This document shows positions 3,380 through 4,252 of a DNA stretch of 17,995 nt, in pieces; within the stretch, counting starts at the first letter, position 1, and each line of letters opens with the position of its first letter. A model generated the notes under the pieces. It was not told where the DNA came from. It saw only the letters and a program-made list of their open reading frames with translations, and did no database searches. The stretch comes from Escherichia coli. Lineage in GTDB: Bacteria > Pseudomonadota > Gammaproteobacteria > Enterobacterales > Enterobacteriaceae. The stretch lies in assembly GCF_003334335.1 (NCBI RefSeq), contig NZ_QOWQ01000057.1. One strand, given 5' to 3'. Position numbers and translations under genes: made by a program.

Positions 3380-4252
3380 TCAGAAGAAAATCCAGTTCCA
3401 TACCGCGCGGGCAACAGAGACCACCGTGTCACGGACGGCACGCAGAACTGTGCGTGCAACAGAGGCAACACAGACGCTCTCCACCGTGTCAAATATCCGG
3501 TCCACCGCACCGGTAAACTGTTCACGGGCCTGCCCCCGGACAGATTCCGTGCACAGCTCGTCCTGCAGGCGGGTCATCAGGGGACTGGCGGCATGGTCGG
3601 GAAGCGCTGTCATGAGCGCACTGACCAGCGTATCCAGTTCCCAGCCGGTGCGGGCCGATACGGCAACAACCGGATGTACGGGCCGGAACAGCCGGAATAC
3701 CGCATCTGTTTTTTCGCGAATGTTCTGTTCCTGTGCGGGAGAAGGCTGAATACCTGCCATATCCCATTCATGGCAGGGCTCTGTTTTGTCGGCCTGCGTC
3801 ACCACAAACAGCACCTGCTGATGTCCCCGGTGCAGTATGTGTCGCCAGAAATACTCATCCACAGACAGGGCACGGTCATCGGCTTTAATCAGCCACAGTA
3901 CCAAGTCCAGTTCAGGCAGAATGTCACGGTACAGGGCTTCATACTCTGCATCCCTGTCCCGGCTCTCGCCCACCCCGGGCAGGTCAGTGATAACCATGCT
4001 GTGACCGTGGCCACTCAGACGGAAGCGCCGCACTTCCCGGGTGCCGGCGTGAACATCACTGACCGGGGTGACCTCCCCCTGAAACAGTGCATTACAGAGT
4101 GAGGATTTACCGGCCCCGCTTTTACCCATAATGCCAATCACGGGTTCGTGACTGGTGAGTTTGCGCAGATGTTCCAGGATGTGACGGGAAAGTGAGTAAG
4201 GCAGGGAGGAGAGCGGTTTTTCAATTGCCTCAATGGCATCAGACGGATTCAT
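3380..4252 (-). CDS. yeeP: YeeP/YkfA/YfjP-family GTPase (CP4-type island GTP-binding protein), apparently intact, 290 aa
   Basis: Walker A/G1 GIMGKSGAGKSSLCNALF, G3 DLPGVGE, G4-like TQADK. Start placed at ATG 4250-4252 (MNPSDAIEAIEK...); the ORF-track start at 4291 is a GTG 13 codons upstream. Lies upstream of and co-oriented with flu. Symbol assigned from synteny and remembered family features only. Confidence 0.8.
   Translation of the reverse strand: MNPSDAIEAIEKPLSSLPYSLSRHILEHLRKLTSHEPVIGIMGKSGAGKSSLCNALFQGEVTPVSDVHAGTREVRRFRLSGHGHSMVITDLPGVGESRDRDAEYEALYRDILPELDLVLWLIKADDRALSVDEYFWRHILHRGHQQVLFVVTQADKTEPCHEWDMAGIQPSPAQEQNIREKTDAVFRLFRPVHPVVAVSARTGWELDTLVSALMTALPDHAASPLMTRLQDELCTESVRGQAREQFTGAVDRIFDTVESVCVASVARTVLRAVRDTVVSVARAVWNWIFF

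Follow-up and report, generated by a model that had tools for sequence, protein, structure and literature searches.

An intact YeeP/YfjP-family GTPase gene at the head of a CP4-type island core in Escherichia coli

A 290-codon GTPase gene beside agn43

We analyzed a 17,995-nucleotide (nt) stretch of Escherichia coli DNA (contig NZ_QOWQ01000057.1 of RefSeq assembly GCF_003334335.1; here, the window) for a gene of the YeeP/YfjP/YkfA family of P-loop GTPases that lies next to the autotransporter adhesin gene agn43. According to the list of open reading frames (ORFs) and their translations, minus-strand positions 3380..4252 are a single open frame of 290 codons plus a stop, with the ATG at 4252 and the stop codon ending at 3380. 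The coding sequence (CDS) comprises 870 nt, and the gene is 58% G+C. A preliminary description of this DNA had proposed an uninterrupted YeeP-family frame of this length without naming the strand, and its coordinates proved exact. RefSeq calls a 99%-identical gene in strain MDP9-27 a "GTPase family protein" (WP_096696086.1), and NZ_CP026723.1 is one genome that carries a copy at 100% nucleotide identity.

Two other frames at the locus were considered and rejected. A start at the in-frame GTG at 4291 would lengthen the protein by 13 residues (303 amino acids [aa] in total), but we did not adopt it because it lies inside the terminator-like leader hairpin described below and because RefSeq and all homologues begin at the ATG. 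The plus strand has an ORF of 263 aa (3311..4102), which was taken to be a shadow ORF of the GC-rich GTPase gene.

All five G motifs of the GTPase lie in the same frame (Table 1). The preliminary description had already placed Walker A, G3, and G4 in one frame, which we can confirm with the qualification that G4 reads TQAD instead of the canonical [N/T]KxD: the Asp is retained, and Gln takes the place of Lys, as it does family-wide. In a conservation alignment of 47 sequences (28 to 62% identity), G43, G46, G48, K49, S50, D90, P92, and G93 were invariant; near-invariant positions were T71, Q153 (43/47), D155 (44/47), K156 (43/47), and also S199.

Intactness, selection, and the K-12 remnant

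The closest described relatives are the K-12 proteins YfjP (b2632, in CP4-57) and YkfA (b0253, in CP4-6), both annotated as putative GTP-binding proteins. They align with the window GTPase end to end at 50 to 51% identity, with indels of only 1 aa and 4 aa, and they share G1 to G5, including the Gln in G4, as well as a conserved C-terminal helix (VVSVARAVW); both have 287 aa, compared with 290 aa in the window. A further 44 full-length homologues were likewise colinear. The preliminary description had named an alignment with ykfA, yfjP, and the K-12 yeeP remnant as the check that might reveal a hidden frameshift or truncation, and this alignment revealed neither in the window gene.

The length of the protein is also typical of its family. 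The dominant E. coli cluster (97% identity; 18,190 member sequences) is 290 aa long, and the modal length over 3,532 homologous clusters is 290 to 291 aa, with 1,982 representatives at an E value of ≤1e-3. In a Foldseek search of AFDB50, family members were retrieved at template modeling (TM) scores of at least 0.9. Among six E. coli copies differing at up to 15% of synonymous sites, the pairwise ratio of nonsynonymous to synonymous divergence (dN/dS) was 0.06 to 0.23. Given the absence of frameshifts and truncations from the alignment, the same-length dominant cluster, and the low dN/dS, the gene is intact and under purifying selection. Apparent DUF932-GTPase fusions (clusters P0009, P0046, P0047, and P0049) were not counted as a functional link because they are shorter than the two proteins summed; we took them to be deletion or assembly products.

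In MG1655, yeeP (b1999) is annotated as a pseudogene in CP4-44, between a yoeA fragment/IS2 and isrC-flu, in agreement with the preliminary description, which had called the K-12 gene disrupted. The NCBI annotation pipeline (PGAP) describes the K-12 locus as a "GTPase family protein, incomplete, missing N-terminus" of 552 nt. The locus is orthologous to that in the window, lying directly upstream of isrC and flu, and the retained 552 nt differ from the window gene by a dS of 0.11 and a dN of 0.024. In our alignment, homology starts at codon ∼108, and codons 108 to 290 are all that is kept; K-12 has therefore lost G1 to G3 along with its leader and promoter region, and yoeA/IS2 sequence stands in their place. 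K-12 yeeP is thus a 5′-truncated stump, one that often serves as a neutral site for integration.

Intact copies predominate, and K-12 is the exception. The coding sequence was matched in 4,780 of 5,426 complete E. coli genomes, and at least 80% of the gene was covered in 4,108 of them, that is, in about three quarters; the number of places per genome had a median of 2 and a maximum of 8. The entire 18-kb window was at least 80% covered in 193 complete genomes. Intact YeeP beside Ag43 has been listed as orf46 in the SRL pathogenicity island (PAI) of Shigella flexneri (PMC6980539) and, as YeeP/"NgrB," in islands of Shiga toxin-producing E. coli and in PAI II of uropathogenic E. coli 536 (PMC6174562). 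These islands have the same gene in the same Ag43-adjacent place, with other integration sites and other cargo, and the gene is listed there as a "50S ribosome-binding GTPase" with no function assigned (PMC6980539, PMC6174562). When we traced the name NgrB in the literature, we met only unrelated NGR234 locus tags. The intact gene is thus already known and routinely annotated, as is the K-12 truncation. Because the intact state is common and already tabulated, the contrast with K-12 is informative about that strain and not about the window: most E. coli strains keep one to several intact copies, so the finding itself is ordinary and K-12 is the odd one out.

The truncated copies in K-12 and many other strains, together with many "partial" clusters (one of 206 aa has 4,387 members), could also be read as signs that the window gene is a relic without function in a decaying island, its frame open only by chance or through recent acquisition; the leader terminator, too, may hold expression very low. 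We consider this very unlikely in view of the dN/dS values, the catalytic residues that stay invariant over 28 to 62% identity, the full length kept in thousands of clusters in Enterobacterales and beyond, and a leader structure that is maintained by compensatory changes.

A conserved leader with a promoter-like box and a hairpin

A conserved block separates the cargo breakpoint from the ATG. Its box, TYAGRYAKATATYAT, occurs in 22 loci, once per locus and 65 to 90 nt upstream of the start codon (positions 4319-4333 of the minus strand in the window). It holds a −10-like TATTAT, which TTCCAA precedes at a 15-nt spacing. The equivalent element of ykfA and yfjP, TTGAAA-15-TATCAT, appears in a list of constitutive RpoD promoters obtained by genomic SELEX (PMC3946193).

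The box is followed by a hairpin with a U-run, a ribosome-binding site, and the ATG, in that order, and the same arrangement is found in L004 (5622-5700), L006 (2975-3050), L013, L016-L030, and L047. The sequence of the hairpin varies among paralogues while its structure is kept: the window and L013 have CCCCGC...GCGGGG, whereas yfjP has CGGCAGAACC...GGUUCUGCCG (the K-12 YfjP/YkfA type), and others differ again. In 12 ykfA-type leaders, the 12-bp stem had 96.5% of alignment cells paired, with changes on both sides in 6 of its 12 pairs. None of 500 shuffles matched the observed covariation score, and controls in which the stem was slid along the alignment fell to 27 to 54% paired. The G-U pairs and the one-sided U-run assign the structure to the sense RNA.

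As the hairpin lies between the box and the start codon, any transcription into the GTPase gene must pass a terminator-like element. We read the hairpin as an attenuator, a reading about as likely as not. Rfam at permissive thresholds yielded no family for the leader (4150-4480), and the element carries no annotation in MG1655. We also considered an outer helix around the hairpin (CUGAA/UUCAG in the ykfA type and GUGAA/UUCAC in the yeeP type) that might mask the Shine-Dalgarno sequence, and we set it aside because the likely transcription start, 6 to 8 nt past the −10 element, excludes most of the 5′ arm from the RNA. We propose the leader of box, hairpin, and U-run as a feature of the family; it is not an established criterion. 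The conserved terminator offers a concrete handle on when the GTPase gene is expressed.

Protein class and predicted fold

The window GTPase matches the Pfam family MMR_HSR1 (E = 4e-14) and other G-domain families only weakly. The closest solved structures by sequence are those of Der/EngA and Era (1e-9 to 1e-7), and a common automatic label for the family is "50S ribosome-binding GTPase." This label, a generic Pfam G-domain name, is the only basis for supposing that the protein acts in ribosome assembly like Era, EngA, and EngB, as a paralogue carried by a mobile element and binding to ribosomal subunits. We find this quite unlikely. The NCBIfam equivalog scores are far beneath the cutoffs for Era (51.5 against 237 bits), Der (46.4 against 306.7), and YsxC/EngB (38.2 against 124.45), and the matches to MnmE and HydF are likewise far under their curated cutoffs. 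The protein has no second G domain, Pfam gave no match to a KH or other RNA-binding domain, and both extensions are helical, the C-terminal part purely so in the model. Moreover, the gene is accessory, multicopy, and island borne. In PHROGs, the window GTPase matched only families of unknown function.

An AlphaFold model built from the 47-sequence alignment (predicted local distance difference test score [pLDDT], 95.1; predicted TM score [pTM], 0.91) comprises a pair of N-terminal helices, a G domain of canonical form, and two long C-terminal helices (aa 236-260 and 264-289). The predicted fold thus has an Era/EngB-like G domain at its center, with the N-terminal helix pair and a C-terminal helical hairpin packed against it on either side. 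In the Protein Data Bank, the top full-length Foldseek matches were to Irga6/IIGP1 (TMq, 0.53 to 0.57; ∼290 columns; root mean square deviation, 5 to 8 Å; E value of about 1e-9), and Toc34 and GIMAP7 were also matched over the full length. Mfn2, IniA, LeoA, and BDLP aligned structurally over 193 to 225 residues. Irga6/IIGP1, Toc34, and GIMAP7 share with the model the order of N-terminal helices, G domain, and C-terminal helical domain, but TM scores are only ∼0.5, identity is 17 to 22%, and the window protein is ∼100 aa shorter. The Pfam family IIGP matched aa 24-99 without significance (E = 0.017), and we see no sign of common descent with these proteins beyond the TRAFAC class. Immunity-related GTPases (IRG), Toc34, and GIMAP7 are activated by dimerization and work as G-domain dimers.

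The last helix of the model is amphipathic. Residues 265-284 have the top hydrophobic moment of the protein (0.71), with an Arg face, and the helix ends in WNWIFF; no hydrophobic segment of transmembrane grade was found anywhere in the 290-aa protein. In P0189, a relative of 700 aa, a glycine-zipper (YMGG-like) motif occupies the C-terminal end, where YeeP has the amphipathic helix. In the long relatives P0189, P0215, P0221, and P0156, the YeeP-like GTPase module is C-terminal and follows 350 to 425 residues without known function; a scan of these relatives for Rosetta-stone domains gave only the glycine zipper.

Two metagenomic contigs (L008, 251-2104, and L009, 242-2095) carry tandem pairs of paralogous ∼300-aa GTPases that are distant members of the family. 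The pairs are reminiscent of paired dynamin-like proteins and would be compatible with dimerizing GTPases.

Island context and neighboring genes

Downstream of the GTPase gene and on the same strand, a DUF932 gene (yfjQ/yafZ type) was present in 24 of 39 loci examined for context (37 from IMG/VR and two metagenomic loci): immediately next in 17 (in 14 of these at ∼95 bp past the stop codon), with an antirestriction gene in between in 4, and at a greater distance in 3. It is followed by varied sets of YfjR, ArdB/KlcA-type antirestriction, RadC-JAB, DUF987, CbeA, CbtA, and DUF4942 genes, and at least one core gene was found downstream in 30 of the 39 loci. No informative neighbor was recognized beside the distant members without the tested core genes (L036, L037, L041, L043, and L048-L051). 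On the upstream side, the homology of E. coli copies ends ∼100 nt before the ATG, and variable cargo lies beyond; in K-12, the cargo beside yfjP is abpAB and rnlAB. With variable cargo upstream and conserved genes downstream, the GTPase gene thus opens a conserved CP4-type island core. YfjP and YkfA have the same place at the head of the core, with the same promoter-like box and leader hairpin, and differ in that the DUF932 gene (yfjQ or yafZ) is directly next. In the yeeP-type arrangement of the window, the GTPase and DUF932 genes are separated by an insertion of an isrC-like region, agn43, a YeeR-like gene, and irmA. The near-identical island of MDP9-27 (99.3%), which adjoins a tRNA-Ser gene beside ghrA/ycdX, has the full core downstream of Ag43. 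Together with the colinearity with YkfA and YfjP, this bears out the earlier view of the gene as an intact copy of a CP4-type island gene.

Upstream of the leader, the window contains a low-GC ORF of 314 aa and a block in which darT-darG lies between hsdS and hsdR of a type I restriction-modification (R-M) operon (Table 1). The 314-aa ORF received no PADLOC or PHROG assignment and is "hypothetical" in RefSeq. As it stands at the cargo edge beside the R-M/DarTG block, it may be an uncharacterized nuclease or defense gene.

Table 1. Features of the GTPase gene, its leader, and its surroundings in the window
Feature	Position	Strand	Basis or remark
YeeP/YfjP-family GTPase CDS, 290 aa + stop	3380..4252	-	ORF, translation, Pfam, homologue alignment
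G1/Walker A, GKSGAGKS, aa 43-50	4103..4126	-	Read from sequence
G2, switch-I threonine T71	GTPase frame	-	Present in 46/47 homologues
G3/Walker B, DLPG, aa 90-93	3974..3985	-	Read from sequence
G4 variant, TQAD, aa 152-155	3788..3799	-	Family consensus NQxD, not NKxD
G5, SAR, aa 199-201	GTPase frame	-	Read from sequence
C-terminal amphipathic helix, Arg and Trp/Phe rich, aa 264-290	3380..3463	-	AlphaFold helix 264-289
Promoter-like element TTCCAA-15-TATTAT, includes conserved box TTAGGCAGATATTAT	4319..4345	-	Box conserved in 22 loci
GC-rich hairpin (4282-4308) and U-run (4269-4281), terminator/attenuator candidate	4269..4308	-	Between box and start codon
IsrC-like RNA region (Rfam IS102), between GTPase stop and agn43	3026..3262	-	67.8 bits; gathering score, 46
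Ag43/Cah autotransporter adhesin CDS, downstream neighbor	161..3007	-	ORF 161..3082; RefSeq 2,847-nt CDS starting MKRHLNTSYRL
314-aa ORF, low GC, directly upstream of GTPase leader	4468-5412	-	Weak N-terminal GIY-YIG match, Pfam E = 0.017
Type I R-M operon with darT-darG between hsdS and hsdR	6690-16025 (block)	+	RefSeq names from near-identical island
hsdM	6690-9128	+	RefSeq, near-identical island
hsdS	9122-10462	+	RefSeq, near-identical island
darT	10475-11131	+	RefSeq, near-identical island
darG	11116-12195	+	RefSeq, near-identical island
hsdR	12214-15309	+	RefSeq, near-identical island
M48 metallopeptidase gene, after hsdR	15309-16025	+	RefSeq, near-identical island

The GTPase, placed at the edge of the island's defense cargo, might itself be an antiphage protein, namely, a compact relative of Eleos (LeoA/LeoBC) or of the IRG/GIMAP-like immune GTPases. 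We think this unlikely. PADLOC matches to a profile of 601 positions are confined to aa 10-126 in the G domain, and neither flank carries a LeoA or LeoBC partner, the neighbors being Ag43 and the GIY-YIG-like ORF. Furthermore, the gene is part of the conserved core, with the GTPase gene, leader, and DUF932 gene staying in place while the cargo changes, and the neighboring core genes include an antirestriction (i.e., antidefense) gene and a toxin-antitoxin pair.

Possible role of the GTPase

The best overall explanation, to which we give a probability of roughly 70%, is that the window carries an intact, selectively maintained YeeP/YfjP/YkfA P-loop GTPase that heads a CP4-type island core. The parts of this explanation differ in strength. 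The product is very probably an intact, functional GTP-binding protein. A role that serves the island, as opposed to housekeeping, is somewhat favored. That the protein is both activated by dimerization and associated with the membrane is a tentative suggestion by analogy, and we would sooner doubt it than adopt it.

On this explanation, GTP would be bound through the G1 to G5 residues (with the G4 Asp kept and Lys exchanged for Gln), and the protein would work as a nucleotide-dependent switch. Hydrolysis would probably be triggered by G-domain dimerization, as in IRG, Toc34, and GIMAP7; we suggest this because the closest full-length structural matches are of the IRG/Toc/GIMAP class, and the tandem pairs are in keeping with it. 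The Arg/Trp/Phe-rich amphipathic C-terminal helix would probably hold the protein peripherally at the inner membrane. Its task would most likely be to help establish or maintain the island, alongside DUF932 and the antirestriction module, and not to assemble ribosomes. Expression would probably be low or conditional, as the hairpin and U-run after the promoter-like box should terminate most transcripts.

Several points weigh against this explanation. The absence of the canonical Lys from G4 makes guanine specificity and affinity less certain. The C-terminal helix is predicted with high confidence and so may simply pack on the protein itself and not on a membrane. The promoter assignment in the window is tentative, since the spacer is 15 nt and TTCCAA makes a poor −35 element. 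Alternatively, the hairpin could shield the core from transcription out of the cargo or mark the end of a small RNA; an undescribed one of ∼45 nt might be encoded by the leader. One preprint reports no notable resuscitation phenotype for a yfjP deletion. The preliminary description had called the role of the gene unknown, and in the literature that we searched we found no biochemical or genetic study of YeeP, YkfA, or YfjP function, nor experimental support for the function of any family member. The wider interest lies in a gene so common in complete E. coli genomes, clearly under purifying selection and at the head of a very widespread island core.

A bolder and unlikely version would make the YeeP/YfjP GTPases compact bacterial counterparts of dimerizing, membrane-acting GTPases (IRG, GIMAP, Toc, and dynamin-like proteins) whose synthesis is gated by the promoter-proximal terminator, the GTPase serving as the on-switch of the island core. 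Read-through would then occur only on a specific signal, e.g., an island-encoded antiterminator or the island's arrival in a new host.

The agn43 regulatory region and GATC depletion

Apart from the leader terminator, two by-products of the analysis are possibly worth a separate look: the loss of a GATC site upstream of agn43 and a long GATC-free stretch. The Rfam IS102 match that separates the GTPase gene from agn43 reaches into the 5′ region of agn43, an overlap also shown by isrC in K-12, and in MG1655 isrC lies between yeeP and flu; by its position, we take the match to be IsrC. The agn43 regulatory region, which is the OxyR/Dam phase variation switch, has only two GATC sites in the window (3225 and 3257). 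The middle site reads GATA (ATCGATAGTT, 3225-3260), whereas K-12 and the 99.3%-identical MDP9-27 island have three GATC sites.

On both sides of these two sites, GATC is absent from 135-3224 and from 3261-5945 (∼5.8 kb), while other parts of the window hold 53 GATC sites. The agn43 CDS has none, against a Markov expectation of 8.0, and the GTPase gene and the 314-aa ORF together have none, against 7.4. K-12 flu is GATC free as well; in the MDP9-27 island, GATC is also missing from another 5 kb over the CbtA-to-DUF932 core. The related genes ykfA and yfjP are not depleted, with 3 and 4 GATC sites, respectively, compared with 0 in the window GTPase gene.
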